From a virus: a stretch of DNA of 64,000 nucleotides. Position numbers and translations under genes: made by a program. Below, piece by piece: positions 1-53,422 of the stretch (position 1 is the first letter of the stretch; every line of letters starts with the position of its first letter). The stretch covers positions 1-64,000 of IMG/VR virus record IMGVR_UViG_3300044675_001894. The stretch is one strand, 5' to 3'. The notes below the pieces were generated by a model. The model ran no database searches and was not told where the DNA came from. It was given only the letters and a program-made list of their open reading frames with translations.

Positions 1-523
1 CGCCAGCAGGCGCACCAGAAGCCACACGGCTTAGTGAGGACGAAGCAAATGCTCGCTTATCTACAACCAACTCTGTGGTGTAGGTGGTATTAAAAGTATT
101 CTTTACATAGACGGCATACAGCGGAATTTGTGTGTCAGCCAGCGTTGGGAACACTGGGTTAGTTGCACTAGATGTTCCCTGTACTACGTCAAACTGGAAA
201 GTACCACTGTTGTTGTATGCAACGATAATGTCAAAGCGGGTGTCGCTACTAATTGGAGCGGCAGCAACAACGACAGTTGATCCTGTAATAGATCCGTATG
301 TGTTACCAATACGGACCTCTACAGTACCGAGAGTTACGTTGAGGTAGGCAGGCGTTGCGTTACCAGCGGCACTAGCCACTGCAGTAATGTTTGCTCCACT
401 GATTACACCATGTCGGTGATCACCAATACTTGAAAAGTCAAGAGAGTCTGGCTCTGACTGATCTAATGAGGCAATATTCCCAAGTCCAAAATCGGTTGCG
501 TTAGGGACTGTAAAGCCTGCCAT
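1..523 (-). CDS. Virion structural protein, partial (runs off left edge)
   Basis: Not in ORF track. Translated manually from ATG at 523: MAGFTVPNATDFGLGNIASLDQSEPDSLDF...TRFDIIVAY..., open to the edge; follows the capsid gene. Confidence 0.7.
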   Translation of the reverse strand, partial: MAGFTVPNATDFGLGNIASLDQSEPDSLDFSSIGDHRHGVISGANITAVASAAGNATPAYLNVTLGTVEVRIGNTYGSITGSTVVVAAAPISSDTRFDIIVAYNNSGTFQFDVVQGTSSATNPVFPTLADTQIPLYAVYVKNTFNTTYTTELVVDKRAFASSSLSRVASGAPAG

Positions 524-6247: not shown

Positions 6248-7401
6248 TAGTCTGCTTGGTATTCTTTACCTTGGTACATTCCCCATCCGTTGTAGATAGG
6301 AATGACGTCGTAAGAGAAACGATGTTGGTTGTCATCTTCGTAACGAACTATTCCTAAACCTTGTTGCCAGTTTTCGTGACGAGTCAACGGGCGTCCGTCA
6401 AGATCTACGCCTCCACGTGTGGACGGAATCGCTCCGTCAATACGGGCAAGGCAACCAGGAGAAGCAGCCATGATGGTGCGTGGACCATCAAAGTCTTCAC
6501 GTGTTTTAAACGCCGTTTCAATGCGGTGAATATGCCCATAGATAACACTCGTCTTCTCTTGGTTGAGATAGATGTGCGCAGTTGAACCTGACGACTTCAC
6601 ACGATCGCCGTGGATGATTCGGAGTTTCTCATTGACCCAGTAATCAGATGCTGGGTATCCTGGCTTGTAAACAACATTGAAATCGTCCATACGACAAAGG
6701 TATGGAACACTCAAAACAGGCCATGATTCTGGGGTGTTTCCCTTGCGCAAACCATAAGCGGCTGATGCATTTACCAAGAGGTACTTAGGCATACGCTCTT
6801 CGTGGTTACCAGCAAGCCAAACGATTTCTGCATCAGGAGCCGCAGAACGCACCTGTGCACAGAACACTGTTGCACGATCAATTGATGCTTGTGTTGTTTG
6901 TGCATACGCAGGGTATGTCAAGTACTTACCCATCTCAGGGAAGTCAAGGTTGTCACCAACACAAATAACAGCATCAGGATTTAATTCTTCAATGATCTTG
7001 AGTGCAACACTAAGTGCCTTCTCATCATGAGTTGGTTCTAGTGTTCCATCACGTCCACGGTAGTAACCAATTTGAATGTCAGGAACAACAACACATGTTT
7101 TGAATGTTGATGCTTTCTTTACCTTTGCTTTAGGCGTTGGCATTTTGATTGCAGGACCTTGTTTAACAACAGGCCACTCTGGACCAGTTTCCCACTTAGG
7201 AGAAAACTGAATAGCGGCGAGGTCATGGATATGCGCCTCACCTTCTGAGTCCTTTGACATTGCTTGGTACAACTTGACACGCTTGATGTCACCAATTTCA
7301 TTGATGTCAATGTTCTTGCTTTCAAGCATTTCAACTAACTTGCCAAGCAACTTACTCTTGTCTTGTGGTGCGGTTGTTAACGCTTTTGCTAGTTCACTCA
7401 T
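6247..7401 (-). CDS. Calcineurin-like metallophosphoesterase
   Basis: PDIQ, GDNLD, GNHE, HGD, GHIH motifs; start moved to MSELAK (7401) after an AAGGAG RBS. Confidence 0.85.
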   Translation of the reverse strand: MSELAKALTTAPQDKSKLLGKLVEMLESKNIDINEIGDIKRVKLYQAMSKDSEGEAHIHDLAAIQFSPKWETGPEWPVVKQGPAIKMPTPKAKVKKASTFKTCVVVPDIQIGYYRGRDGTLEPTHDEKALSVALKIIEELNPDAVICVGDNLDFPEMGKYLTYPAYAQTTQASIDRATVFCAQVRSAAPDAEIVWLAGNHEERMPKYLLVNASAAYGLRKGNTPESWPVLSVPYLCRMDDFNVVYKPGYPASDYWVNEKLRIIHGDRVKSSGSTAHIYLNQEKTSVIYGHIHRIETAFKTREDFDGPRTIMAASPGCLARIDGAIPSTRGGVDLDGRPLTRHENWQQGLGIVRYEDDNQHRFSYDVIPIYNGWGMYQGKEYQAD

Positions 7402-31435: not shown

Positions 31436-33319
31436 TTATCTACGTCTAGAAACGACTGGTGCAGGCAATATAAATGATACCGTAGTTACGGCGATGATAA
31501 CTCTGCGTCCACTGACAGGTATCCCTGATCCAATTGCGGTATAGGTGTCAAAGACACCCTCGTAGATATTTAATTCTTCTTCAAAAGATTCCTTAACGGG
31601 TTCTGGGGCATCTTGCACAGCGTCAACAATGGCAAGACCATCCTCTGGGGTTACAGCCGAAGCCACAATCGCATCAAACACCTCAGCCGCTTGCTCTCCC
31701 GAAACGCTTTCCAGCACTTTGGCGCTCGTAGCCAGTTCGGTGGCTTGTCCTTCACTTACTCCACCTTCTTGAGAAATGACCAAATCCACTACTTGAGCAA
31801 CCTGATCGTTTGTAATGGTGTCATTTTCAAGGATATTTACTACTTCCTCAAACTTACTGTCCGACAGTTCAGGAGTTAAAATGGCATCAAAAGTTTGTGT
31901 CAAAACTTCATCAGATACTTCTTCGTCAAAAATGGCATTGATTACCGTTGCAAACTCGTTGTCATCAAGTGGGCTACTAAGGATCTCTTCAACGAGGGCA
32001 ACAGTTGCCTCATCGGATAAGTCTCCGTCAAAAGCAGCCGTAAAGACCGCTTCCAGTTCTGCCAAAGAAAGGTTAGAACCCAGCAAGTTCTCAACAATTG
32101 CTCCCATCTCTTCTACGCTTGCTTCTGCGCTAAAGACGGTATCCATCACAATTGTAAGTTCTTCACCTGAAAGATTAGAACTCAGCAAAGAAACTAAGAC
32201 TTCAGATACTTGCTCGGTATCAGTCGTATCAGCAAGTACGGCATCCATTACGGCAGTAAATTGTTCTGTAGAAAGGTCGGCGCTCAGAATCTCATCAAGT
32301 GCATCCGTTATCTCTTCGGTAGAAGCATCGGGGGTAAAGATGTTCTCAAGGATGTCTGTCAATGGCTCTAAATTTGGCTCTAAATTTGGCTCTAACTCAG
32401 TTGTGATTGTGGGTTCTTCCACGATAATCTCAGGGGATGTTTCAGTTATCGTGGTTGTTTCTTCGGGAAGCGGCTCCTCTGTCATGGGTTCCTCTACTAC
32501 TGTCGTTGTGGTGCCTGTCGGCACTTCTACGATCACTTCGGGAACGGGAGGCAATGTAGATGTTGTGGTGGTGCTTGTTGTATTCTCCACTAACGTGGTA
32601 CTTGTTGCTGGCACTGTTGTGGAAGTTGAAGAAGTAGATGTTGTCGTCGTCTGAGGTTCAGTACTTGTTGTGGTCGTGGATTCCGTGGTCGTTGTCGGCG
32701 GTATTGTTGTTGTGGATGACGTCGTCGTCGTCGTTGTGGAAGTGGTGGAAGAAGTAGTAGTTGTTGTAGAGGTACTAGTGGAAGAAGTAGTAGAAGTGCT
32801 AGTGCTAGTGGAAGAAGTAGTCGTTGTTTGTGAAATACCGTTCCACAAAGACAAATTACTAATTGTAAGATGACCTGGCTGGCAGCAGGTATCTATTGAG
32901 TATTGACGGAACGTGAACACGTCACCCTCGTTGACGGGTACAGACTTGGTTCCTGTCGCATTGTTCTGTTGTGTAAGCAAGGTGTATACACCGTTAACTG
33001 CGTACTGCGGTGGATCATAGACCCAACCATCATTGGTTTGATATGACCAAGTGAAATCTATTGTGTCTACATCTGCGGGAATTGTGGTCTCAATTTTGAC
33101 CCAATGCGCTCCCCCACAAGGTGATCCTTGCGGCGCTAATTGATTATCAGGACCATGCAGAGTTATGGCGTCGTTTACGACTTCAATGTACCCACCACAA
33201 TAAGTAGACTCACTGTATGTCCATTCACCGAGAGCGTCTGCTTTAACAGAAGTGATTGGCGAAATCCAAGCAAAGAGTGCTACAGGGAAGTAGATCCAAA
33301 AGCCTTTACGAAATCTCAT
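31436..33319 (-). CDS. Secreted/membrane protein with Thr/Ser-rich linker and acidic helical repeats
   Basis: Start MRFRK (33319) after AAGGAGG; signal-like N-terminus, long T/S tract, C-terminal hydrophobic segment then RRR. Confidence 0.75.
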   Translation of the reverse strand: MRFRKGFWIYFPVALFAWISPITSVKADALGEWTYSESTYCGGYIEVVNDAITLHGPDNQLAPQGSPCGGAHWVKIETTIPADVDTIDFTWSYQTNDGWVYDPPQYAVNGVYTLLTQQNNATGTKSVPVNEGDVFTFRQYSIDTCCQPGHLTISNLSLWNGISQTTTTSSTSTSTSTTSSTSTSTTTTTSSTTSTTTTTTSSTTTIPPTTTTESTTTTSTEPQTTTTSTSSTSTTVPATSTTLVENTTSTTTTSTLPPVPEVIVEVPTGTTTTVVEEPMTEEPLPEETTTITETSPEIIVEEPTITTELEPNLEPNLEPLTDILENIFTPDASTEEITDALDEILSADLSTEQFTAVMDAVLADTTDTEQVSEVLVSLLSSNLSGEELTIVMDTVFSAEASVEEMGAIVENLLGSNLSLAELEAVFTAAFDGDLSDEATVALVEEILSSPLDDNEFATVINAIFDEEVSDEVLTQTFDAILTPELSDSKFEEVVNILENDTITNDQVAQVVDLVISQEGGVSEGQATELATSAKVLESVSGEQAAEVFDAIVASAVTPEDGLAIVDAVQDAPEPVKESFEEELNIYEGVFDTYTAIGSGIPVSGRRVIIAVTTVSFILPAPVVSRRR

Positions 33320-33435
33320 GTCCCTCCTTAGACACGAAAGACGGGCCGCCCGCAGGCAACCCGTCCTCGTTGAGTCTCGGTAATACATTGTACTACATTT
33401 GTAACAACGTACTTATAAAATAGTTTGGAAAACAC

Positions 33436-41941: not shown

Positions 41942-42068
41942 AGCGTCACGGGCTGGCTTCGGCTGGCTCGTGGCGCTCAATGAGGGCTGGAGGCATTCCC
42001 CCTGCTTCAGCCCTGATTGAGCGCACAGCGCTCCATTGGCACACAGCCAATGCAGTCCTGAGGAGGAC
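41942..42068 (+). ncRNA. Structured intergenic RNA element E0 (hairpins A/B/C plus SD hairpin)
   Basis: A 41942-41977 with c(UUCG)g loop; B 41973-42024; C 42019-42033; GTCCT-GAGG-AGGAC 42055-42068. Confidence 0.75.
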
Positions 42069-42073
42069 ACACC

Positions 42074-43051
42074 ATGGATATTCAACTATCAACACTCAAT
42101 CCTGTGGAACACGATTTGCTGTACATGGAGCGCCTACGGACAGCGTCCAAAGCGAACTACCAGTACCGAATCACCAGCCACTACTTGATCAGTGCCTATG
42201 GCAAGGAGTTGCGTTGGAGCAATGGCTACGGAAGCCGTGACAGCGTTGCTGTCGTGGACTACCGCACCGATCCAATGCCCACCGAATATGCACAAGCACG
42301 TCTCATGGAGTTGTACGGCGAAACTGCCGAGGCAATGTTCAATGACGGCGTGGTCGGCATTTACGGCTCACTGCCAACCCGTGAGGCTGAACGCTTCACT
42401 GAGGCTCGTATCGCAATGGAGGATGCACGGCGTGACCTGCGTGAGTGTGACACCGAATATGACAGCCGTCCTTGGAGTCGTTACTTCTTGGTCACGTCAT
42501 CGGATGGGCACATTCACTCCAGCACACAGTGCTCCACCTGCAATAAGGGCGTCAATGACACTGAGTTTGCACTCGTGCCTTACCTCAGCGGATCCAGTGC
42601 CGATGTTGCGGTTGCCGATCTCGGATCGGCGCTGTGCTCGGTCTGCTTCCCTGATGCTCCCGTGGAGTCACGTGAGCAGGTCAAGATCAGCGCCAGCGTG
42701 GCGTTGACACTTGCCGAGCAGGGCGTGGAGGCATTCCAGCAAGCCCGAGCCAAGGCTCGTGCGAACGCTGTGAAGCGTGCTCAGGAGCGTTGCGAAGGCA
42801 GTGGTCAACCAACGGTCAGAAGTGATCGCTGGCATCATTGCCCAGTATGCGGATATGGACAGCGTGCGGACGGTAAGTCCCGTGCACATCGCCGTCCTCG
42901 CTTCTACGCCACCAAAGAGGTCGGCTACGACACCAAATACTGGAACGGCACCACGTGGGCGCCATCAACCAAGAAGGTTGACCTACTCACTCGTGAGCAG
43001 GCTGAAGCCGTCTTGGTGGCTCACGGTGGCTCACGAGTCATTCAGGATTGA
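42074..43051 (+). CDS. Hypothetical Cys/His-rich early protein
   Basis: GHIHSSTQCSTC, LCSVCFP, CPVCG...H. Confidence 0.75.
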   Translation: MDIQLSTLNPVEHDLLYMERLRTASKANYQYRITSHYLISAYGKELRWSNGYGSRDSVAVVDYRTDPMPTEYAQARLMELYGETAEAMFNDGVVGIYGSLPTREAERFTEARIAMEDARRDLRECDTEYDSRPWSRYFLVTSSDGHIHSSTQCSTCNKGVNDTEFALVPYLSGSSADVAVADLGSALCSVCFPDAPVESREQVKISASVALTLAEQGVEAFQQARAKARANAVKRAQERCEGSGQPTVRSDRWHHCPVCGYGQRADGKSRAHRRPRFYATKEVGYDTKYWNGTTWAPSTKKVDLLTREQAEAVLVAHGGSRVIQD

Positions 43052-43057
43052 TCATTC

Positions 43058-43136
43058 CCCCAGCGCCTAGGGCGTGCCCGTTCAATCGGGACTGGGGACT
43101 ACTGGCACCCGCCAGTTACAACGACCTGAGGAGGTC
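43058..43136 (+). ncRNA. tRNA-like three-way-junction element T1 plus SD hairpin
   Basis: CCCCAG/CTGGGG, CGCC/GGCG, CCCG-TTCAAT-CGGG, ACTGGC/GCCAGT; covaries with T2. Confidence 0.7.
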
Positions 43137-43141
43137 AAGCC

Positions 43142-43828
43142 ATGAATACAGAAGCAATCTACGACAAGGTGCAGGCAATCCTTGATCGTGCCAATCACCC
43201 GAACACGCCACAAGCGGAAGCCGAGACGGCTCTCGCCATGGCACAACGGCTCATGATGAAGCACGGTCTTGAAGAGTCCGCATTCGCCAAGGCTCAAGAT
43301 CGTGACGAGAACATCGTTACCGATCAGATCCCAATCAGTGGTCAATGGCAACTTCGCCGTCTCGGTCTTGCTGGTGCAATCGCTAGTGCCAACTCTGTTG
43401 CCAACTACCGCTCCACATCGTGGGCGGATGGCAAGAAGTCGTTGGTGTTGGTGGTGTACGGCACTGCTGGTGACATCTTCGCTGTCAAGACACTGTTTGC
43501 ATCGGCAGACTTGCTCGCTTCTCGTGTGATCCCAAAGGGTGATCGGTCATTCCGCAATGCGTGGTGGCTCGGATTCTCCTCGGGAGTGCGTGAGGTGTTG
43601 CGCAAGTCCAAGAACGAAGTGATCGCAGAGCAAGGTGCTGGCACTGGGCTGGTGCTCGCTGACAAGTTCAAGCGTGCAGACGCTGAGATGCGTTCAAAAG
43701 TCAAACTCAAGTCCAGTGGGTACTACAGGTACTCATCGGGTAACGGTTACAACGCTGGTCGTTCTGCTGGTCGTTCGTTCAACACTGGTGGCATCGGTAA
43801 CGGTGTCGCTGGAGCGCTCGGACGATGA
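43142..43828 (+). CDS. DUF2786-domain protein
   Basis: KVQAILDRA......EAETALAMAQRLMMKHG; FRNAWWLGF; GYNAGRSAG. Confidence 0.8.
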   Translation: MNTEAIYDKVQAILDRANHPNTPQAEAETALAMAQRLMMKHGLEESAFAKAQDRDENIVTDQIPISGQWQLRRLGLAGAIASANSVANYRSTSWADGKKSLVLVVYGTAGDIFAVKTLFASADLLASRVIPKGDRSFRNAWWLGFSSGVREVLRKSKNEVIAEQGAGTGLVLADKFKRADAEMRSKVKLKSSGYYRYSSGNGYNAGRSAGRSFNTGGIGNGVAGALGR

Positions 43829-44301
43829 GCATCCATGCATACATGGAGGTAGTGCGGGAGGGCGTTGCAAAGCGCTCTCCCAAAATGCCCGAACATCAAG
43901 CCACGGTGTATGCAATTGAGAATGTGGTGGAGCGTCACTTGCCATCGCAAGTGATCGCTACCAAGAACGCATTCGCTTGGCTGGATCGTGTGTGTGAGAC
44001 CGAAGGCTGGGACACGCCGATGGTTGATCGCATCCGATCCACCAAGTGGGCAGGTGTCGCTAGTGCCGAAGGCAATGTCATCGGCATCAGTGGCTCCAGC
44101 ACGACAGCACTGGTACTGGCTCACGAACTCGCTCACATCGTGTGTGGCGAGCGTGGTCACAATGAGTGTTGGCGTAATGCGTTCGTGAACATCGTCCGAG
44201 ATCACATCTCGGTACAGCATGCGTCACTCCTGCATACCTTGTACGAGCGTTTCCAACTTCAATCAGGTCAGTGGAGGCTGACCGACACATCACGAGTGTG
44301 A
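43825..44301 (+). CDS. HEXXH metallopeptidase-like protein (TIGR04338-like)
   Basis: VLAHELAH...GH; coupled to DUF2786 gene. Confidence 0.7.
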   Translation: MSIHAYMEVVREGVAKRSPKMPEHQATVYAIENVVERHLPSQVIATKNAFAWLDRVCETEGWDTPMVDRIRSTKWAGVASAEGNVIGISGSSTTALVLAHELAHIVCGERGHNECWRNAFVNIVRDHISVQHASLLHTLYERFQLQSGQWRLTDTSRV

Positions 44302-44388
44302 ACTCGTGGTGCTGTCATGGCTCATCGGCGCAAGTTGGTGAGTCATGACAGCATCATCCGATGCTGAATAAAGCGACCTGAGGAGGTC
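44288..44388 (+). ncRNA. Structured element E1
   Basis: A 44288-44311 (GUGA loop); B 22-bp stem 44308-44355 (GCAA loop, 5 G-U); C 44349-44366; SD hairpin 44375-44388. Confidence 0.8.
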
Positions 44389-44392
44389 AACC

Positions 44393-44947
44393 ATGAAAAC
44401 ATCAGAGATCAAGCAGATCATTGCCAAGGATCCGAACGCCGTGTTTCGCATTGGCGGTCGTGGTCGGTACACGCACTACGGCTCAATCACAGAGATTAAA
44501 GAAAATGTCGTGGACACTTACAGCAGTTGGGGTCGCAAGACGGGCACCCGTGTCAATGTGTTATTCACAGTGCGTTACGAGTACTTCACTAGTGGCACTG
44601 AGGCTCATTACGGCTACCCCGAGAAGTTGCCTTCAGTAACACTGGAGCGCAACACTTGGACTAAGCCACGTGACATTGAATGGCACGTGTCGGACTTCGG
44701 TCAGACCATTGAAGAATATGTGGTAACGACTGACGCCGAAGTGAAGGCTGACTGGCAGGCAAAGAAGGACAATGACAATGCCAAACAACAACTGATCAAC
44801 CGAATTCTCAACGACTTCGGAATCGTGTTGAGTGTGGGTGATGAAGCCACTGACAAGCGCTGGGATCACCTAAACGATGAGTTGGACAGACTCAGCCTTG
44901 ACACATTGAAAATGCTTGTACACAACTACACACCTTCACGGGTGTGA
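44393..44947 (+). CDS. Hypothetical early protein
   Basis: 184 aa, preceded by SD hairpin. Confidence 0.75.
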   Translation: MKTSEIKQIIAKDPNAVFRIGGRGRYTHYGSITEIKENVVDTYSSWGRKTGTRVNVLFTVRYEYFTSGTEAHYGYPEKLPSVTLERNTWTKPRDIEWHVSDFGQTIEEYVVTTDAEVKADWQAKKDNDNAKQQLINRILNDFGIVLSVGDEATDKRWDHLNDELDRLSLDTLKMLVHNYTPSRV

Positions 44948-44954
44948 TTGGTTC

Positions 44955-45035
44955 CCCTAGCGCCTCGGGCGTGCCGATTCAATTCGGACTAGGGACTGTG
45001 AGCACTCGCTCACTACAAAATACCTGAGGAGGTAT
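44955..45035 (+). ncRNA. tRNA-like element T2 plus SD hairpin
   Basis: CCCTAG/CTAGGG, CGCC/GGCG, CCGA-TTCAAT-TCGG, GTGAGC/GCTCAC, ATACCT-GAGG-AGGTAT. Confidence 0.7.
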
Positions 45036-45039
45036 AGCC

Positions 45040-45363
45040 ATGGCATATCAACTAACAGACTGGGATCTAGAGCAGATCACTGACACGCTGGACATGTATG
45101 AAGCGGGCACCGTGAGGCGGTACTCGGGTCGTGCGATGTACGGCGAGCAGTGTCTCGGCATCGTGACCGAAGATGTGGCATCAGCATTCATGATCCTCGG
45201 ATCAGCACTCGCTGACTTGGGCAATGACGGTAACGCATTGACAAGAAAACTTCTTCGTGAAGTGCGCCAAGACAGCATGGGTCGTGACTCAGCCGTTGTC
45301 TACTTCCCATCCATCACAATGCCCGAGGGTTACGTGGAGGGTGACGAAGACAGCGACAACTAG
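45040..45363 (+). CDS. Hypothetical acidic early protein
   Basis: YSGRAMYGEQCLGI...DSMG...VYFP. Confidence 0.75.
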   Translation: MAYQLTDWDLEQITDTLDMYEAGTVRRYSGRAMYGEQCLGIVTEDVASAFMILGSALADLGNDGNALTRKLLREVRQDSMGRDSAVVYFPSITMPEGYVEGDEDSDN

Positions 45364-45382
45364 TCGTAAGTGGTAGTCGGGA

Positions 45383-45486
45383 GCATCACGGGTTCGCCCG
45401 TGATGCCCTCACAGTGCATCGGCGTTGTGTCGGTGCATTGTGAGGGCATACAATTGCCCGTTCAACTAATAAGACCTGAGGAGGTC
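45383..45486 (+). ncRNA. Structured element E2
   Basis: A 45383-45406 (UUCG loop); B 45403-45449; C 45444-45459; SD hairpin 45473-45486. Confidence 0.8.
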
Positions 45487-45489
45487 ACC

Positions 45490-45744
45490 ATGGATGCAAC
45501 TATTCACAAAGTAACTGGGCTTCGGATTGAGAAGACTGGTGACTCACGACTCCACACGATTGATCTCGTGATTGAGTACGAAGACTTGGCGTTCAGCCGT
45601 CCCCAGTGGGAGCAGGACAACGAGTCATTCGGTTACGCAAAGTTGGAGTCAACGATCACGCTCTTCATCAGTGACACCGCTGATATTGAGACAGTGTTGT
45701 GGAAGGCGATCGCAGATCTCACTTCCGACCTTGCCAATGCGTGA
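45490..45744 (+). CDS. Hypothetical acidic early protein
   Basis: Start moved to MDATIHK (45490), directly after the SD hairpin. Confidence 0.7.
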   Translation: MDATIHKVTGLRIEKTGDSRLHTIDLVIEYEDLAFSRPQWEQDNESFGYAKLESTITLFISDTADIETVLWKAIADLTSDLANA

Positions 45745-45761
45745 GTAATGAGCAATGGGCA

Positions 45762-45868
45762 GTCATGGCGCAAGCCATGGCGTGCTCGGAGTGCACTGAC
45801 CCCCATCGGTGCATTCCGAGGACGCAAGTCCATACTTAGTAATTCAAAACAGAATCTGAGGAGGTTCT
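45762..45868 (+). ncRNA. Structured element E3
   Basis: A 45762-45781 (GCAA); B 45780-45825; C GGAC-GCAA-GTCC; AGAATCT-GAGG-AGGTTCT 45851-45868. Confidence 0.75.
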
Positions 45869-45872
45869 TACC

Positions 45873-46598
45873 ATGGGTGCAATAACACCAAAACAGCAAG
45901 CGTTCATTCGCACAATGCTCCTTGAGCGTGCTTCAACACTCGGTCTTGATGAGGCTGGCGTTGATCAGTACATCATTGATCAGAAGGTGAATGAGTTGTC
46001 AAACAAGTCAGCGTCCACCGTCATTGATGCGATCAAACGCATTGAAATCAAGCGTGTGGGCACCGATCACTTGCCGAAGGCAGAGCGCACCATTGTCAAC
46101 AAGTATGCGAACCCGTGCACATTGTGCGGTCATCCTGTACCTGTTGGTGCTGGTCATGCATTGCTTATCGGTGGCAAGTGGCAGACGTACCACGCACTCG
46201 GTCAGTGCTCCAGCGAAACTGCTGTAGCGCCCGAGCGTGTGAGCAATGAGTTGTTCGGGACATTGCCTGATGGCTTCTATGCAATGAAGTCAACGGGCAC
46301 CAATGACCTCGTGTTCTATGCGGTGAAGACAAACAAGGGTTTTCATGATCCGAAGTTCAAGGGTCACCGCTCCATCTACCTGATCGTAGGTGGACACAAG
46401 GACGAGCGACTCACTGGTGAGCGTGGCGTGAACGCTGTGAAGCGTCTCGTAGCGCTCAACGATGCAGAGCGTGTGCAGGCACGAGCACTGTACGGTCAAG
46501 AGATCGGACGGTGTGGTGTGTGCGGGCGTCATCTCACTGATGAGGCAACACGCAAGCGAGGCATCGGCAATGACTGCGCAAGCAGGTTGGGCATCTAG
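45873..46598 (+). CDS. DUF6011-domain protein
   Basis: ITPKQ..FI N-terminus; YG.EIGRCGVCGRHLTDE..R.RGIG.DC. Confidence 0.8.
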   Translation: MGAITPKQQAFIRTMLLERASTLGLDEAGVDQYIIDQKVNELSNKSASTVIDAIKRIEIKRVGTDHLPKAERTIVNKYANPCTLCGHPVPVGAGHALLIGGKWQTYHALGQCSSETAVAPERVSNELFGTLPDGFYAMKSTGTNDLVFYAVKTNKGFHDPKFKGHRSIYLIVGGHKDERLTGERGVNAVKRLVALNDAERVQARALYGQEIGRCGVCGRHLTDEATRKRGIGNDCASRLGI

Positions 46599-46605
46599 CC
46601 CAAGG

Positions 46606-46699
46606 ATGTCATGGCGTAAGCCATGGCGTCCTCACAACACATCGGGCAACTGGTGTGCTGTGAGGACGCAAGTCCACTAACAATTACCTGAGGAGGTAA
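46606..46699 (+). ncRNA. Structured element E4
   Basis: A 46606-46629 (GUAA); B 46626-46669 (GCAA); C 46664-46675 (GCAA); TTACCT-GAGG-AGGTAA 46684-46699. Confidence 0.8.
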
Positions 46700-46705
46700 C
46701 AGACC

Positions 46706-48238
46706 ATGAATACACAACTAGGAGAACTAAGCGCATTGCTTAGTCGTGTTGAGCGTGTAGCGCCAGCCATCACGGCTGACCCTGCGCTCCATGCGTTAAG
46801 CAGTGCTCACGATGGCGAAGTCGCTGTAGACCTCGCCCAACCTCTCTTCCCATTCCAGCGTGCTGGTGTGGCGTATGCACTCAAGCAACGCCGTGCCATC
46901 ATCGGAGATGAGATGGGGCTGGGTAAGACTCCACAAGGCATCGCAGTAGCAGTGCACGCACACAAGGAGGGACACAAAGTCCTCGTTGTAGTGCCACCAT
47001 CGCTCCGCATCAACTGGCAACGCTCCTTCGCACTGTTCGCACCGTGGCTCTCAACAGCCATTGTGTCGGGCAACAAGGTGACGGCTCTTCCCAAAGCAGA
47101 TGTGCTCATTATTGGTGACAGCATCATTGACACTTGGTCAGTGAGGCTCGTCAATGCCAAGTTCGGCGCACTGATCGTGGACGAGGCACACCGTGCGAAG
47201 AATGCAAAGTCAGGACGCACCAAGGGCATCGCACATATCGCAAAGTCAATCCCGACTGAAGGATATGTGACGCTCTTGAGCGGAACGATCATCGTGAACC
47301 GTCCGAACGAATTGGTCTCGCCATTGTCAATCATTGGCAGGCTTGACCGAGTGTTCGGTGGTAAGTCAGCGTTCCTGTTTCGTTACTGTGACCCGATCCA
47401 CAACGGCTGGGGTTACGTGTATAACGGAGCAACCAACACCACTGAGTTGAACGACAAATTGCGTGGCACCTGCTACGTGAGGCGTAACAAGTCAGATGTG
47501 TTGAAGGAACTACCTGCCAAGCGCCGTGCTCAGGTTGCTACCGAGATCAGCAACACCGATCTCGTGGCATATCGCTCTGCCGAAGAGAACTTCCGTGACT
47601 TCGTCATCGCCAATGGCGGTGTTGAAGCGTGGCAGAGAGCCTCTAAGGCTGAAGTGATTACACGCTTGAATGCATTGCGCAGGTTGCTAGGCATCGCCAA
47701 GATCCCGTATGTGGTTGAGCACGTAGAAGAACTTGTCGCACAAGGCGAGAAGGTCATCGTGTTCGCACACCACAAAGAAGTCATCGCACAACTAAGCAGT
47801 GCTCTTCATGAGCACGGCGTAGTCAAGGTGGCTGGCGGACTCAGCGATGTGCAGAAGCAGGAAGCAGTTGACGCATTCCAAACTGGTAGCGCCAAGGTGT
47901 TCATCGGACAATTTCAATCCGCTGGTGTTGGTCTCACATTGACCGCATCATCGCATGTCGTGTTCGCTGAATTGCCATGGGAGCCAGCCTCCGCAGTACA
48001 AGCCGAAGACCGTGCGCATCGCATCGGTCAAGACAACGCTGTGGTGGCATGGTGGCTACTGGCTGTAGACAACACAAGCGAGATCCCAACAGTGGACGAT
48101 CGCATGTGGGCGCTACTGAATGCCAAACACGAGACAGTCTCGGCTGTCTTGACGGGGCATGGTGAGGACATGGGCGCCGAGGGTGCGACAAGCATCACTC
48201 AATCGCTCATTGAAGGCATCATCGGCAACGGAGGTTGA
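46706..48238 (+). CDS. SNF2-family (HARP-like) helicase/ATPase
   Basis: DEMGLGKT, DEAH, LSGT, GVGLTLT, QAEDRAHRIGQ. Confidence 0.95.
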   Translation: MNTQLGELSALLSRVERVAPAITADPALHALSSAHDGEVAVDLAQPLFPFQRAGVAYALKQRRAIIGDEMGLGKTPQGIAVAVHAHKEGHKVLVVVPPSLRINWQRSFALFAPWLSTAIVSGNKVTALPKADVLIIGDSIIDTWSVRLVNAKFGALIVDEAHRAKNAKSGRTKGIAHIAKSIPTEGYVTLLSGTIIVNRPNELVSPLSIIGRLDRVFGGKSAFLFRYCDPIHNGWGYVYNGATNTTELNDKLRGTCYVRRNKSDVLKELPAKRRAQVATEISNTDLVAYRSAEENFRDFVIANGGVEAWQRASKAEVITRLNALRRLLGIAKIPYVVEHVEELVAQGEKVIVFAHHKEVIAQLSSALHEHGVVKVAGGLSDVQKQEAVDAFQTGSAKVFIGQFQSAGVGLTLTASSHVVFAELPWEPASAVQAEDRAHRIGQDNAVVAWWLLAVDNTSEIPTVDDRMWALLNAKHETVSAVLTGHGEDMGAEGATSITQSLIEGIIGNGG

Positions 48239-48318
48239 TCGTGGGCGCTCGGCGCCTCATGGTCGGCGCCAGTAGCGACAGACGATGTGTTCTTGTCCTC
48301 ACGAGAACCCATCACAGT

Positions 48319-48421
48319 GCATCACGGGCGCAAGCCCGTGGTGTTCTGACAGTACATTGGCACACCGCTTGTGTACTGTCAGAACATCACCCGATGTTCA
48401 AGTAACAACGCCTGAGGAGGC
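48319..48421 (+). ncRNA. Structured element E5
   Basis: A 48319-48344 (GCAA); B 48340-48388; C 48382-48399; GCCT-GAGG-AGGC 48410-48421. Confidence 0.8.
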
Positions 48422-48424
48422 ACC

Positions 48425-48661
48425 ATGAAAGTAAGTCAAGCAATCAAGTTATTGAGTGAGATCAACCCTGACGAAGAGATCGCTATCTCTTGGTGGGAAT
48501 CAAACTTGTTCACTGACAAAGACAACAACCAACTATTGGCAGACTCAGAACTGTGGCTCAAGGCAGTCGCAGTGTTTGACGCCAACGGTGGTTACGACAG
48601 CGTCAACCAATTGGTATGGGATTACCTCAATTACGACATCAATCAAGAAGGAGAGTTTTAA
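48425..48661 (+). CDS. Small acidic early protein
   Basis: 78 aa after SD hairpin. Confidence 0.7.
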   Translation: MKVSQAIKLLSEINPDEEIAISWWESNLFTDKDNNQLLADSELWLKAVAVFDANGGYDSVNQLVWDYLNYDINQEGEF

Positions 48662-48904
48662 ATGGACATTTCAGAAGCAATTCAAACAATGATCACTAAT
48701 CGCCACCTCAAAGAACACGAAATAGTGGTGAGGTGGTCGTGGTGCGACATCCAAGCGATGTACCCACAGTGGACAGAAGACCAATGCCGAGATGCCCTGT
48801 ATGAAGTTGACGATTATGTACACGAGAGAATCGTGGAACTCGGCAACGATGTGTTGAAGCAACTTGTATACGAAATCGTTGAAACGAAATGGGAGAGTGA
48901 ATAA
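48662..48904 (+). CDS. Small acidic early protein
   Basis: 80 aa, AAGGAG RBS. Confidence 0.7.
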   Translation: MDISEAIQTMITNRHLKEHEIVVRWSWCDIQAMYPQWTEDQCRDALYEVDDYVHERIVELGNDVLKQLVYEIVETKWESE

Positions 48905-49209
48905 TGAACAACATCGGAACACCAATCGGTGCATGGGCAATCATCAAGTGGTATGACTCAGGCATTGAGAGCGAGGTATTCATCTCGTTCGGTACATGGA
49001 ATGAGAACGAGTGGAACGGCGAGTTTGACTCGTTCGGGAATCGTGACGATGAGGTCTTCTTCTACTGCGAAGGTGGAGAAGAGGAACTCAAGTCGCTCAT
49101 GGGTGACAGCAAGGAAGACTTCGTGGTCATCAACTACGCAGTTGACTACAGCATCCCGCTCGTGCTCGCTGACATGGACGAGCCAGTATTCAAGGAGGAA
49201 GCACAATGA
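48904..49209 (+). CDS. Small acidic early protein
   Basis: 101 aa, coupled. Confidence 0.7.
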   Translation: MNNIGTPIGAWAIIKWYDSGIESEVFISFGTWNENEWNGEFDSFGNRDDEVFFYCEGGEEELKSLMGDSKEDFVVINYAVDYSIPLVLADMDEPVFKEEAQ

Positions 49210-49469
49210 TCGGTACAAAGAGTTGGCTACTGACAGGTTGTTATGTAGACGGCACACACGGCGTCTACAGCGCCATGGAAGCGTGCAGGATCGCACGAGA
49301 ACTCGGATGGGATGGGCAACAGCCCACAGACATTGAGGACTCGTGGTACCAAGAAGAGGTAGCCACGGAATGGCTGAACGAAATGATCGCTGATGATGGT
49401 CACTCGTTCGGCTGGCATGACGCCGAATACTTCTACATGCCACAAGCATGGTGGGAGGATGTCGCTTGA
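49206..49469 (+). CDS. Small acidic early protein
   Basis: 87 aa, AGGAGG RBS. Confidence 0.7.
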   Translation: MIGTKSWLLTGCYVDGTHGVYSAMEACRIARELGWDGQQPTDIEDSWYQEEVATEWLNEMIADDGHSFGWHDAEYFYMPQAWWEDVA

Positions 49470-49475
49470 TCGGGA

Positions 49476-49586
49476 GCATCACGGGCTACGGCTCGTGGTG
49501 TCCTCACAGCCCATAAATCATATTTGTGGGTTGTGAGGGCACTCAGTGCCCGATAAATTAATTAATCCCTATGACCTGAGGAGGTC
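49476..49586 (+). ncRNA. Structured element E6
   Basis: A 49476-49501 c(UACG)g; B 21-bp stem 49498-49542; C 49537-49551; SD hairpin 49573-49586. Confidence 0.8.
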
Positions 49587-49588
49587 TT

Positions 49589-49948
49589 ATGTTAGAGCCA
49601 GTAATCACGATGACCGTTGAGCAATGGGAAGAGCAATACGAACCCTTTGTCAATCACCTAGATGCAGATGCATCATGGGCAACCGATGACGCCAACGGCA
49701 TCATGTTTGAAACGTACGGTGCCGAAGTTGATTATGTGTTTGCCCGACCGCTCAACCACACATGGACATATGTGGATGGCGAAGAGGGCACATACATTAT
49801 TGCTGGACGCCATCTCGTAAATCGCATCGGTTACTTCGTAACTGCGGTGCCATGGAAGGATGACTTCAACACCAAGTATGAAATTCAAGTAAGCGCCAAT
49901 GATGATTATTACCAAACAGTGTTAGACCTTGAAGGAGGTAGCAAATGA
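49589..49948 (+). CDS. Small acidic early protein
   Basis: MFETYG.E...WT.VDG...G.H.VNRIGYFVT..PW. Confidence 0.75.
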   Translation: MLEPVITMTVEQWEEQYEPFVNHLDADASWATDDANGIMFETYGAEVDYVFARPLNHTWTYVDGEEGTYIIAGRHLVNRIGYFVTAVPWKDDFNTKYEIQVSANDDYYQTVLDLEGGSK

Positions 49949-50166
49949 GCAAGATCAGTTTTGACAATGTGGATGAAGGTACCGAGGTAGAAGTACTCGT
50001 GCAGATATCCCCGAGGGAGACATTCCCGTACACAGGGATCGTTTCACGAGTCAGTGACACCGAGTTGTCAATGTGGACTACAGACAGTCCGAACGACACT
50101 TACGAGACCGAGCGTGAGATTGATATTCCAATCGCAAAGATCCTTGAACTGGACATCTTTGAATAA
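49945..50166 (+). CDS. Small acidic early protein
   Basis: 73 aa, AGGAGG RBS. Confidence 0.7.
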   Translation: MSKISFDNVDEGTEVEVLVQISPRETFPYTGIVSRVSDTELSMWTTDSPNDTYETEREIDIPIAKILELDIFE

Positions 50167-50202
50167 TGAATCGTTAAGCGAGTCCTGAGAGGCTTGTACG
50201 AA

Positions 50203-50327
50203 GGGTGGCATCAGCCTCGGCTGGTGTCATCCCGTGGATGCTCTGCTTCCTATAGGGGGTCAGCGGAGCGTCCACGGGGTGAGGCAACTGTGCAACACCT
50301 GTACATAACAATGATCTGAGGAGGTCA
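50203..50327 (+). ncRNA. Structured element E7
   Basis: A 50203-50232; B 50227-50282; C weak; TGATCT-GAGG-AGGTCA 50312-50327. Confidence 0.7.
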
Positions 50328-50329
50328 AA

Positions 50330-50575
50330 ATGAGTAAATGGAATGTAACGGTCTCGCTCCAAACGGGCGTGTACCTAAAAGAAGTCATTGCAAATGATCC
50401 ATCAACATTGATTGAGGGAGACCTCAATGAAGCAGATGTGATCAAAGCATTGATTGAGCAATTGCAGTCGGGTGATTCAACACTGGACTGGGTAGTGGAA
50501 GAAGTGCAAACACTGGACGGTCGTGTCGTGCGGTTTGACGATGAGGATCGTGTATGGCTCGGAGATGCAGTATGA
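50330..50575 (+). CDS. Small acidic early protein
   Basis: 81 aa after SD hairpin. Confidence 0.7.
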   Translation: MSKWNVTVSLQTGVYLKEVIANDPSTLIEGDLNEADVIKALIEQLQSGDSTLDWVVEEVQTLDGRVVRFDDEDRVWLGDAV

Positions 50576-50778
50576 GCAAAGGCTGGGTCACACAGATCGT
50601 CATGCTTCTCGGTGTCACGGAGATGGAAGCCGAACAGATTGACAAGTACGCCCTTGAAGAAGGGCTGTACAACGAGATAGACAGCAGTGAAGCCAGTGTG
50701 GCAGAACTTAAAGGGTTCTACGCAATGGTTAGCGATGAGTACAGAAGAGCAAACAACATTGAAACAAAGAGCCTTTAG
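50572..50778 (+). CDS. Small hypothetical protein
   Basis: Start MSKG (50572) overlaps upstream stop, GGAG RBS. Confidence 0.6.
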   Translation: MSKGWVTQIVMLLGVTEMEAEQIDKYALEEGLYNEIDSSEASVAELKGFYAMVSDEYRRANNIETKSL

Positions 50779-50789
50779 GAGGGCACAAC

Positions 50790-51086
50790 ATGGGAACAAT
50801 TAATGCACTAGGCATGGCGGAAGCCGTGGAAGACGGAATGATTGAACTGCGTCAGGCGCTCGCATGGCACCTGCAAAGCAATCACTATCCAGCAGTACCA
50901 CTGAACATGGTTGATCCATGTGTTATTGCAATTCAGTTAGTCACCGAAGGTGAGCACGACAGCAATGTCTCGCTCCCCGACGGAATCTTGTGGCGAGGTC
51001 AGCCAGTTGCTCCAGCGTGGGCAGTTGTAGACGCACACCACCTTGAATCATTCATTGACATCAGCGAAGAAGAATGGGGTTTCTAA
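50790..51086 (+). CDS. Small hypothetical protein
   Basis: WHLQSNHYP.VP; degenerate SD hairpin GCCTT-TAGG-AGGGC 50771-50784. Confidence 0.7.
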   Translation: MGTINALGMAEAVEDGMIELRQALAWHLQSNHYPAVPLNMVDPCVIAIQLVTEGEHDSNVSLPDGILWRGQPVAPAWAVVDAHHLESFIDISEEEWGF

Positions 51087-51637
51087 TGAGCGAAGAAACA
51101 GTAAACAAATGTTGTGAGTGCGAGGAGATCGTGGACACCGAAGGTGACTTCGGCTGGAGCACCGTCAAAGAGGATTACCTCTGCTGGGGTTGCTACGAGT
51201 CAGATCAGAACCACGCTTCAACTTTGCAGGTCATTGATGATGGTGCAGTACTCAAGTACTACATCGGAGATCATGTACGCATGGATGAATACGGCGATGA
51301 CATGTTTCGTACCAACATCACGGTCAATCGTGAGTATGTGCACTCCAGTGCATGGCGTGGTTACTACAACACCACGATTGAAGGCTGGACACAGGTCATG
51401 GATGGCTGGACAACGGGAGGCTGGGATGACCCAATCGCTCAACGTAAGCAGACATTCAATGAATGGGCTGAGTCATTAGTGACAGGTGACTTGGTACCGC
51501 CCGTTCCTGTAGCCATCGTGGCTGACCCCACGAGCAATGTGTTCAGCATGGGCATCTCGGTGCTCACACCTGAGCCAGCCAAACTCAAGGAATGGATCAA
51601 CGGAGACTTTGACAAACTTTACGGAGCACTGTCATGA
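51086..51637 (+). CDS. Hypothetical protein with N-terminal zinc ribbon
   Basis: CCEC...LCWGC; AWRGYY. Confidence 0.7.
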   Translation: MSEETVNKCCECEEIVDTEGDFGWSTVKEDYLCWGCYESDQNHASTLQVIDDGAVLKYYIGDHVRMDEYGDDMFRTNITVNREYVHSSAWRGYYNTTIEGWTQVMDGWTTGGWDDPIAQRKQTFNEWAESLVTGDLVPPVPVAIVADPTSNVFSMGISVLTPEPAKLKEWINGDFDKLYGALS

Positions 51638-51918
51638 GAGACTACACAAAGACCAACAACAGGATCACAGGAGCGTTCTATGTGTACCTTGCGGTTCTTG
51701 TAACAGTATTCGTAGTAGTACTGTTCCGAGATTATGTAGAGCGCATGGACTCGTATGTCTGCAACACAAAGCAACACACCGTGACATACGGGGAGAGCCT
51801 GTGGGAGATCGCTCAGAGCAACTGCTCAGGCAATATCCGATCAGCCGTAGATGACCTCGTAGACACCTACGGGTCAACCATCCAAAACGGGCAGGTCATT
51901 GACCTTCCCACAAAATAG
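51634..51918 (+). CDS. TM plus LysM protein (YneA/ChiZ-like architecture)
   Basis: Single TM then HTVTYGESLWEIA...IQNGQVIDLP. Confidence 0.8.
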   Translation: MRDYTKTNNRITGAFYVYLAVLVTVFVVVLFRDYVERMDSYVCNTKQHTVTYGESLWEIAQSNCSGNIRSAVDDLVDTYGSTIQNGQVIDLPTK

Positions 51919-51927
51919 AAATAGAAG

Positions 51928-51956
51928 TTGCAATTCCCAATCCACGGAGGTAGTTT
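51928..51956 (+). promoter_or_regulatory. Sigma70-type promoter for DUF932 gene
   Basis: TTGCAA-N17-TAGTTT, followed by A-rich leader and AAGGAG. Confidence 0.6.
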
Positions 51957-52007
51957 TATCTCAGTGGTACAACAAATCAAATAAGTCAAACAACAAGGAG
52001 AAATAAC

Positions 52008-53033
52008 ATGTCAAGAGAAACCAGCCAGTGGCTCAACCAGAACGTTCTGGTGGGCTTCACATCCAAGCGTGGAAATGCATGGCACTACAAGGCAACTGAA
52101 CAAGGAACCGAGCCAAACCATTATGAGCAGGCGATCCCTGTTGAAGATGTGCGCAGGCGTTTGTTCAACTGGCAGGCTGTTGAAGCACCAGTGTTCGTTC
52201 AAGTTCCTGACAACGCTGGAGTCAACCGTTACATTGCGCAGAATGACCGCAAGGCAATTGTTCGCAACGACACCTATGAGACTCTCGGTCTCTTCAAGGA
52301 CTCGTATCAGATCCACCAGTACAACGAGTGGTTGATCGGAACCATCAGCAACATCATTGATGACAGCAACCTTCAGATCGGCTCTGCGGGCTTGCTCCGC
52401 AACGGTGGAGTTGCTTGGGTCAGCATTGAGATGCCTGAGACAGTTCAGACCAAGGCGGGCTTTGAGTTCCGTCCTCACCTACTCGGAACTACGAGCCACA
52501 ACGGCACACTTGCCACCACCTTCAAGCGCACAGTCACCGCTGTGGTGTGTGACAACACGCTTGCTGGAGCACTTGGTGAGAGCGGATCAGAGTTCAAGAC
52601 CCGTCACAGCAAGTTCAGCAACGGACGCATCCAAGACATCCGTGATGCTCTCGGAATCATCCACACCATGGCAGACGAAGTCAGCCTTGAGATTGAGCGC
52701 TTGTCATCATTGACAGTCACCCAGTCTGAATGGGATGCCATCGTTGACCGCTTGGTGCCAGTGAGTATCACTGATGATGCTCGCCCTCAAGCCGTGAGCC
52801 GTGCTCAGAACAAGCAAGAGTTGATCCGTCACCTCTACAAGAATGACCCACGCTGTGCTCCATGGGTTGGTACCCAACTCGGAGTGTTGCAGGCATTCAA
52901 CACATGGACTCACCACTTCAGTGGCAAGGACGAGTCCCGTGTAGAGCGCAACGCAATGAATGCACTCAACGGCAAGACCGATGAGTTTGACCGTCAGGTG
53001 CTTCGCATCATGAATGACGTGGTACTCGTATGA
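52008..53033 (+). CDS. DUF932-family phage/plasmid protein
   Basis: SAGLL.NG..AW, TSHNGT, VVCDNT, RHS motifs. Confidence 0.85.
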   Translation: MSRETSQWLNQNVLVGFTSKRGNAWHYKATEQGTEPNHYEQAIPVEDVRRRLFNWQAVEAPVFVQVPDNAGVNRYIAQNDRKAIVRNDTYETLGLFKDSYQIHQYNEWLIGTISNIIDDSNLQIGSAGLLRNGGVAWVSIEMPETVQTKAGFEFRPHLLGTTSHNGTLATTFKRTVTAVVCDNTLAGALGESGSEFKTRHSKFSNGRIQDIRDALGIIHTMADEVSLEIERLSSLTVTQSEWDAIVDRLVPVSITDDARPQAVSRAQNKQELIRHLYKNDPRCAPWVGTQLGVLQAFNTWTHHFSGKDESRVERNAMNALNGKTDEFDRQVLRIMNDVVLV

Positions 53034-53422
53034 CCGAAGCGCTGGTGGGGGAGCAATCCCCCACCTATGCTCGGGACACCGAATACACAGCCTTACCATT
53101 CCCCGAAGTGATGGCGGAATGGAGATCGCAAGCCAAGTGCAAAGATGAAGACGGATCACTGTGGTTTGCCAGCAAGCCGAAAGGCATTAACAACTCATCC
53201 ATCAAAGGAAGAATTGTTAACAGCCGTAGGAAGCGGGCACAGCGTATTTGTAAAGTGTGTCCTGTTCAGTATGAATGCCTGCGCTACGCCGTCTTGAATG
53301 ACTTCAGGGATGGCATATGGGCTGGTTATGAAATGGATGACCTCACACATACAGACCGTCAAGTACTTCGTCAGCGTATTAAACGAGCAGAACGAAAGTT
53401 AAGTAAGACTGTCAATAAGTGA
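53030..53422 (+). CDS. whiB: WhiB-family transcription factor
   Basis: W..QAKC...C..CPV..EC...GIWAG. Confidence 0.85.
   Translation: MTEALVGEQSPTYARDTEYTALPFPEVMAEWRSQAKCKDEDGSLWFASKPKGINNSSIKGRIVNSRRKRAQRICKVCPVQYECLRYAVLNDFRDGIWAGYEMDDLTHTDRQVLRQRIKRAERKLSKTVNK

Follow-up and report, generated by a model that had tools for sequence, protein, structure and literature searches.

The stretch analysed here (the window) is the first 64 kb of the IMG/VR virus record IMGVR_UViG_3300044675_001894, a genome of 96,857 bp that is judged complete. Two gaps between genes in this window each contain a 40-nt RNA three-way junction, here called T, which belongs to a family of covarying sense-strand structures. 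Members of this family stand directly behind stop codons, change places with a multi-hairpin element between orthologous genes, and are inherited with the gene upstream. The reading that we tentatively prefer, without considering it established, is that T is a boundary module of an early polycistronic mRNA, cut in the AC(U) linker that follows the junction. An earlier note, made from the letters of the window alone, had described the two copies, T1 and T2, as tRNA-like processing signals; its coordinates, sequences and stems are exact (Table 1), as are the three compensatory differences that it listed between the stems of the two copies, and its comparison with tRNA is taken up below.

Fold and covariation of the junction

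In both T1 and T2, arm 1 is flush with the closing stem, and arm 2 is set off from it by a single junction A. The minimum-free-energy and centroid structures are the same three-way junction followed by a hairpin, with or without the flanks, with folding z-scores of -2.5 to -3.7, and 0–2 of 200 shuffled sequences fold equally well. The 32-nt pattern shared by the two copies has two occurrences in the window and in the whole 96.9-kb genome, and none in 100 shuffles. The T1/T2 pair alone is weak evidence for the fold, and it is the relatives that settle its reality.

An exact-pattern scan of IMG/VR yielded 19 contigs and a looser pattern yielded 60 stretches. A covariance model was then seeded with 11 copies and searched, as the earlier note had proposed, and this search recovered 115 copies, corresponding to 77 distinct sequences, in about 60 related IMG/VR contigs. 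Standard base pairs occupy 99.5% of the 1041 pair cells, versus 25–48% when the partners are slid. Double changes occur at 10 of the 14 pairs, and changes on both sides are found in 245 cells, as opposed to 65 ± 9 in shuffles. The three helices were also recovered by RNAalifold from an independent MAFFT alignment of 28 flanked copies. Because pair 13-30 is U-G in 29 of the 77 distinct copies, the fold can form on the sense strand only; T is, in addition, in sense orientation to both flanking open reading frames in all 96 distinct contexts. This strict orientation, the sense-only U-G pairs and the compensatory changes in three helices indicate that selection acts on the folded transcript, and the structure proposed in the earlier note is thus a real one. 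Pattern matches in the contigs of two metagenome-assembled genomes (Lentisphaerae and Butyricicoccus) were not confirmed by the covariance model and are therefore attributed to chance.

The same observations bear on a reading at the DNA level, in which T would be a selfish repeat, a recombination linker, a signal in single-stranded DNA or a self-cleaving ribozyme, with no role in the fate of the mRNA. Cassettes are shuffled at the elements, as they are at the promoter/stem-loop (PeSL) repeats of T4-type phages (PMC2839356), but orientation, U-G pairs and compensatory changes all speak for the RNA, and searches gave neither a ribozyme core nor a match to any ribozyme family in Rfam. With lengths of 0, 2 (UG) and 1 (A) nt, the junction strands do not contain the CUGANGA and GAAA strands of a hammerhead core; neither the window nor 295 kb of related loci yielded a ribozyme, and in the latter no Rfam family reached its threshold. 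This reading is very improbable.

Complete or near-complete relatives carry 2, 4, 2 and 7 copies of the element. A sister subfamily, found in 11 contigs of a related lineage (Table 1), has the same architecture, leader, junction A and AC tail, but differs in its UA junction, its 5-bp arm and its GUCRUA loop; copies of this type and of the UUCAAU type occur together in the same contigs. Within the main family, the near-invariant unpaired bases are the leader (U-U/C-C), the junction UG, the UUCAAU loop, the junction A and the AC tail. The arm-2 loop of the 77 distinct copies reads UUCAA in 75 and UUCGA in two. In the leader (89 contexts), position -1 is C in 79, position -2 is U or C, and position -3 is U, and the linker (91 contexts) is ACU in 57, ACA in 18, ACG in 11 and GCN in five. 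The hairpin that follows the linker, hairpin 2, had been counted in the earlier note among the shared parts of the element; it is indeed present in T1 and T2, but does not belong to the covarying stems of the family. This variable accessory has several unrelated sequence types, is predicted at a free energy (dG) of -5 or lower in 65 of 91 contexts, and is absent from some lineages.

A covarying scaffold carrying conserved unpaired bases is typical of a protein-binding site, and T is restricted to an operon in which most genes have no known function. The element might thus be an operator, at which a phage or host RNA-binding protein would read the UUCAAU loop and the junction and exert coordinated control over early-gene translation or decay. 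Against this, no RNA-binding domain was identified, the element lies about 30–45 nt from the Shine-Dalgarno (SD) sequence or start codon, with a hairpin in between, which is long for direct occlusion, and the sister subfamily has a different loop in the same contigs; on these grounds, an operator seems improbable. The conserved leader and the compact junction would also suit an exonuclease-resistant knot, a phage counterpart of the flaviviral exonuclease-resistant RNAs (xrRNAs), stopping the 5'-3' exonuclease RNase J, an enzyme that Actinobacteria possess, at cistron boundaries. Pairing is conceivable between C(-1) of the leader and the G of the junction, and between U(-2) and the A of the junction, but these pairs do not covary, position -2 being C in 21 of 89 contexts while the A is unchanged. 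The element is also much smaller than known xrRNAs, and the one weak Rfam match to a flavivirus repeat falls on the wrong strand and below any threshold, so we would be surprised if T proved to be such a knot. A pseudoknot partner for the UUCAAU loop was considered and rejected: AUUGA occurs upstream in 9 of 89 contexts, in stop-codon contexts, and almost never downstream.

Table 1. Features of the two T elements, the Shine-Dalgarno hairpins behind them, and sister-subfamily copies in related contigs (positions in the window unless a contig is named)
Feature	Position	Strand	Details
T1 leader UUC	43055-43057	+	unpaired, conserved; upstream stop TGA 43049-43051, 6-nt spacer
T1 three-way-junction core	43058-43097	+	model score 73.7 bits
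T1 closing stem	43058-63/43092-97	+	6 bp
T1 arm 1	43064-67/43071-74	+	CGCC/GGCG, loop UAG
T1 junction bases	UG 43075-76; A 43091	+	unpaired
T1 arm 2	43077-80/43087-90	+	CCCG-UUCAAU-CGGG, loop UUCAAU 43081-86
T1 linker ACU	43098-43100	+	unpaired; AC conserved in the family
T1 accessory hairpin 2	43101-43116	+	ACUGGC-ACCC-GCCAGU
SD hairpin after T1	43123-43136	+	GACCU-GAGG-AGGUC; precedes ATG 43142 of DUF2786 gene 43142-43828
T2 leader UUC	44952-44954	+	upstream stop TGA 44945-44947, 7-nt spacer
T2 three-way-junction core	44955-44994	+	model score 75.8 bits
T2 closing stem	44955-60/44989-94	+	6 bp
T2 arm 1	44961-64/44968-71	+	loop UCG
T2 junction bases	UG 44972-73; A 44988	+	unpaired
T2 arm 2	44974-77/44984-87	+	loop UUCAAU 44978-83
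T2 linker ACU	44995-44997	+	unpaired
T2 accessory hairpin 2	44998-45013	+	GUGAGC-ACUC-GCUCAC
SD hairpin after T2	45020-45035	+	AUACCU-GAGG-AGGUAU; precedes ATG 45040 of 107-aa gene 45040-45363
Sister subfamily, L048	~434-475	-	same kind of gap
Sister subfamily, L049	~6674-6715	-	same kind of gap
Sister subfamily, L054	3627-3668	+	same kind of gap
Sister subfamily, further contigs			L009, L019, L070, L079, L088-L091

Position, exchange and inheritance between genes

T1 and T2 both lie in the plus-strand block 41950–53422, the only long one in the genome, which is presumed to be the early/replication operon. This operon encodes a DUF2786 protein, a DUF6011 protein, an SNF2 helicase, a DUF932 protein, a WhiB protein and numerous small proteins with no assigned function, and the minus-strand genes include those for a contractile tail, baseplate, family A DNA polymerase, RecA, DnaB and primase. 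Outside two regions, 33.7–35.1 kb and the operon at 41.9–53.4 kb, the minus strand carries every called gene, in close succession, and long structured gaps are confined to the operon. One of the minus-strand genes (31436–33388) encodes a 650-aa protein with repeated partial matches to GatB/YqeY (GatB_Yqey; profile positions 35–77), which is probably a repetitive helical protein rather than a tRNA-binding factor. To our knowledge, Wbl proteins are found only in Actinobacteria and in actinobacteriophages, and the host is taken to be actinobacterial because the genome has two WhiB genes and also encodes DUF2786 and DUF6011 proteins. Most of the stretch was found in 21 public sequencing runs of lake-water DNA, and the virus is regarded as an uncultured freshwater (lake) myovirus of Actinobacteria. 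No near relative of the region was found among cultured phages, in which BLAST searches with the element gave chance-level matches only.

The distance from the upstream stop codon to the closing stem is 6–13 nt, with a mode of 7, and the distance from the end of the element to the next start codon is about 41–51 nt, with a mode of 45. The upstream stop codon is TGA in 39 cases, TAG in 19 and TAA in 16, and a recoding or read-through signal was rejected because all three are used. A scan of the T gaps for consensus sequences detected neither a sigma-70-like promoter nor an intrinsic terminator, so the flanking genes are probably co-transcribed. A promoter reading of GUG...UUCAAU was also rejected: it fails the -10 rule, it leaves the covariation unexplained and the site scan was empty. 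The gaps around T1 and T2 are structured throughout, being filled by the core, hairpin 2 and the SD hairpin.

A gap folded in this way could act without ever being cut, as a passive insulator that would deny Rho and RNases a landing site, block ribosome sliding and leave the SD hairpin free to fold. The continuous structure suits this reading, as do the minimum spacer of 6–7 nt, which would correspond to the reach of a terminating ribosome judging by its known footprint, and the exchange of the element with unrelated hairpin elements. A mere insulator leaves unexplained the invariant loop, the junction bases and the AC tail, which have been kept in 77 distinct copies while the stems drift; we therefore see a passive role as a minor possibility, although one that deserves to be kept in mind.

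Ten gaps in the operon in the window end with an SD hairpin; eight of these contain the multi-hairpin element and two contain T. Gene-order maps of this phage and ten relatives show that every operon gap of at least 60 nt contains one or the other. In relatives, T precedes orthologues of g44393, g48425, g45873 and the SNF2 helicase gene, all of which are preceded by hairpins here, and orthologues of the two genes preceded by T here (86–90% identity) are preceded by hairpins in contigs L013, L044 and L004. The two elements are therefore interchangeable by position, since orthologous genes carry either, in agreement with the suggestion of the earlier note that T replaces the hairpin element in the same intercistronic slots. 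The multi-hairpin gaps in the window include 44285–44370, 45380–45460, 45760–45840, 46610–46680, 48320–48400 and 49480–49560. Their stems, at 17–20 bp, have the length of RNase III substrates, and in the gap at 44.3 kb, the TGA that ends the upstream gene (44299–44301) lies inside the first hairpin. A further structured gap (50167–50280) has a weak, sub-threshold match to the PyrR binding site (E 1.3; score 29 bits, gathering cutoff 54), a resemblance that is probably due to chance.

Gene order is shuffled among the relatives, according to the same maps, and T is concentrated in the hypervariable 5' part of the operon, with up to seven consecutive gaps containing it in L006. Core identity is 0.92 between copies that have only the upstream gene in common, 0.83 between those that have only the downstream gene in common, and 0.79 in the background (29 and 55 non-independent pairs), and the linker and hairpin 2 show the opposite trend, with identities of 0.54 when the upstream gene is shared and 0.62 when the downstream gene is shared. 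Since the core tracks the upstream gene and hairpin 2 leans towards the downstream one, recombination joints fall between them. The junction thus goes with the 3' end of the upstream cassette, and hairpin 2 and the SD hairpin with the 5' end of the next. A wastewater contig from run X22 matches the window downstream of 44992, with a different T variant upstream (GCG-UUCAAU-CGC, with ...ACAC... in the closing stem), and looks like a recombination joint within the element.

In a related phage lineage (L008 at 650–690, L012, L003, L067 and relatives), the junction is followed by an unstructured CAA-repeat leader with a GGGG-type SD sequence, and hairpin 2 and the SD hairpin are both absent. In three contigs (L003, L007 and L021), the core stands at the end of a gene, and a promoter-like TTGACA-N17-TACGAT, with no hairpin 2, lies between the junction and the CAA-repeat leader.

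In front of ten early genes (42057–50325), the loop of a 4–6 bp hairpin (xCCU-GAGG-AGGx) displays the SD sequence as GAGG, and the flanks of this hairpin covary (GACC/GGUC, UACC/GGUA, GCC/GGC and GUCC/GGAC). The sole minus-strand match to CTGAGGAGGTC in the genome is intergenic and lies outside the window, at about 77682–77692 (about 13883–13893 in L084). The plus strand there consequently reads GACCTCCTCAG, the exact complement of the early SD hairpin, and this stretch is a possible antisense regulator for early genes.

Proposed segmentation of the message and the tRNA question

According to the model that we favour, the 40-nt junction would fold in the mRNA just after the stop codon of the upstream gene, and could stay folded while that gene is translated because the minimum spacer of 6–7 nt matches the mRNA that a terminating ribosome covers beyond its A site. 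With the junction, hairpin 2 and the SD hairpin filling the gap, only the UUC leader and the AC(U) linker would be left exposed. A host endonuclease would then cut the linker, leaving the upstream cistron with the junction at its 3' end, as protection against 3' exonucleases, and the downstream cistron with hairpin 2 as its 5' cap. In this way, the module would segment the operon mRNA and set the stability of each segment, the same job as that envisaged for the multi-hairpin element, and, being repeated, it would also serve as a joint for the reshuffling of cassettes among related phages. A cut in the linker is the most economical model, given the linkage of the core to the upstream gene and its occurrence at gene ends before a promoter-like site.

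RNase Z cuts after the discriminator base, and RNase P at the 5' edge of an acceptor-like stem. Two enzymes can be put forward for the linker: an actinobacterial RNase E, which would act 5' of a C in single-stranded RNA, and RNase Z, if the junction were read as an acceptor/T-arm mimic with A as the discriminator. Both of the exposed conserved flanks of the junction contain a C, and mycobacterial RNase E has been found to cut directly 5' of cytidines, favouring intergenic regions and 5' untranslated regions (PMC10641625). No phage RNA-processing enzyme was seen among the families, 25 at most, listed in summary Pfam scans of the genes between 28.8 and 96.9 kb.

Several points weigh against this model. 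No transcript end has been observed. The three public runs labelled as RNA, of which two are probably DNA, consist of contigs, which cannot show ends; their coverage of the T gaps is uninformative, and they speak neither for nor against processing. A simple barrier to exonucleases would need neither an invariant hexaloop nor conserved junction bases, which therefore imply a specific partner or a tertiary fold. The UUC leader on the 5' side is as conserved as the AC on the 3' side, and a 5'-side cut, similar to that of RNase P, is possible. These gaps in the relatives contain no ribozyme or true tRNA that would mark cut sites, and the pairs behind the linkage statistic are not independent of one another.

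The earlier note had seen in the core an acceptor stem and a T-arm, from which a tRNA decoy might be released. The corresponding hypothesis is that the closing stem and the UUCAAU arm imitate the acceptor/T-arm domain, and that RNase P, cutting at the 5' edge of the stem, and RNase Z, cutting after the A, release a mini-RNA of about 41 nt, acting as a decoy or receiving a CCA tail. In favour of this, UUCAA fits the five-nucleotide T-loop pattern (first base U, fifth base A), and the purine and C after the stem recall R73-C74 of RCCA; the 3' G of the arm-1 loop and the invariant C of the arm-2 loop could, moreover, imitate the G19-C56 contact at the elbow. RNase P is known to cleave phage and operon RNAs (PMC11143913), and RNases P and Z cut plant mitochondrial t-elements (PMC1920247). 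A number of tRNA hallmarks are missing. A tRNA T-arm has 5 bp, a 7-nt loop and a G53-C61 closing pair, whereas arm 2 has 3–4 bp, a 6-nt loop and a closing pair that is AU in 29, GC in 28 and CG in 20 of the 77 distinct copies, and the pentanucleotide of the sister subfamily is GUCRU. The helices that an RNase P or Z substrate would offer add up to 10 bp rather than 12 (6 + 4 bp, split by the conserved A), and the 3' bases are R-C followed by a variable position. It is also arm 1, and not arm 2, that is flush with the closing stem, a geometry that would favour stacking of arm 1, rather than of the supposed T-arm, on this stem.

Searches for tRNA agree with this picture. No match to the Rfam tRNA or tmRNA families was obtained at E<=10, the most permissive search, over 14 kb and over the 86-nt element region, and ARAGORN found no tRNA in the window, the genome or any related locus; its relaxed mitochondrial mode reported 52 'genes' in 2.3 kb, which is meaningless noise. 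Inheritance of the core with the upstream gene is hard to reconcile with RNase P cutting on the 5' side as the principal event, and a molecule without an anticodon loop has no obvious decoy target and would be a poor decoy for anticodon nucleases. Release of a tRNA-mimicking mini-RNA is, on this balance, rather unlikely. A broader idea is that phages of Actinobacteria punctuate their early mRNA with mimics of the tRNA elbow that recruit RNase Z and/or RNase P, the junction either remaining as a 3' cap or being released as a small RNA; this, too, we consider unlikely. Should tRNA-processing enzymes act at T, tRNA punctuation would be extended to phage mRNAs, as a counterpart of mitochondrial punctuation and of mascRNA.

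Comparison with known systems

T is a distinct branched fold, with exceptional covariation support, in abundant uncultured lake actinophages, and it is new to Rfam 15, in which no family matched the 86-nt region even at E<=10. Its constant location after stop codons, the C in each of its conserved, exposed flanks and the way in which a second class of element can take its place make it a testable case for the segmentation and stabilisation of mRNA in a group of hosts in which the specificities of RNase E, RNase J and RNase Z differ from those of E. coli. The 40-nt module could also serve as an operon-insulating part. No named description of the motif was found in the literature searched. One of the 8,495 candidate structured RNAs that have been mined from IMG/VR may nevertheless correspond to it; these candidates come from the same source and were put forward on the same kinds of evidence, covariation and a position upstream of genes (PMC10690425).

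A hairpin loop with UUCAA, beside a helix that closes the molecule, recalls the T-arm and T-loop of tRNA and the tRNA-like domains of tmRNA and YrlA, and, as in these domains, a conserved G in the neighbouring loop could form an elbow-like contact; T differs in having a hexaloop rather than a heptaloop, and no conserved G-C closing pair. We know of no bacterial or phage example of the t-element family. Plant mitochondrial t-elements (PMC1920247), like RNAs subject to mascRNA-type processing, resemble T in having a stripped tRNA-like fold, with no decoding function, at mRNA boundaries. These t-elements have a canonical GGTTCRANYCC pseudouridine arm and mapped ends, sometimes with an added C or CA, whereas T has a loop that is one base short, a variable closing pair and three short helices in 40 nt. 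The t-element motif is approached at best by GGGTTCAATCCC, which is one base short and found in a few copies, and the arm-2 stem bases of most copies differ from it.

The early transcripts of T7-type phages provide a second comparison. Their RNase III sites, too, recur as structured elements in the gaps between early genes of a single transcript, and cutting there leaves protective terminal structures on the message, as proposed here for T. RNase III sites consist of about 20 bp of double-stranded RNA, whereas the T core is branched, with at most 10 stacked pairs, and the multi-hairpin element, with its longer stems, is the better analogue. The PeSL cassettes of T4-type phages (PMC2839356, PMC4122927) share with T a repeated intergenic motif that flanks small, variable early genes without known function and marks the joints at which modules are shuffled among close relatives. 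They consist of a promoter with a terminator-like stem-loop, neither of which has a consensus match in the T gaps, where selection acts on the RNA junction. T is thus a member of none of these groups; its nearest functional neighbours are the plant mitochondrial t-elements and the T7 RNase III sites, and in genome dynamics it is closest to PeSL.

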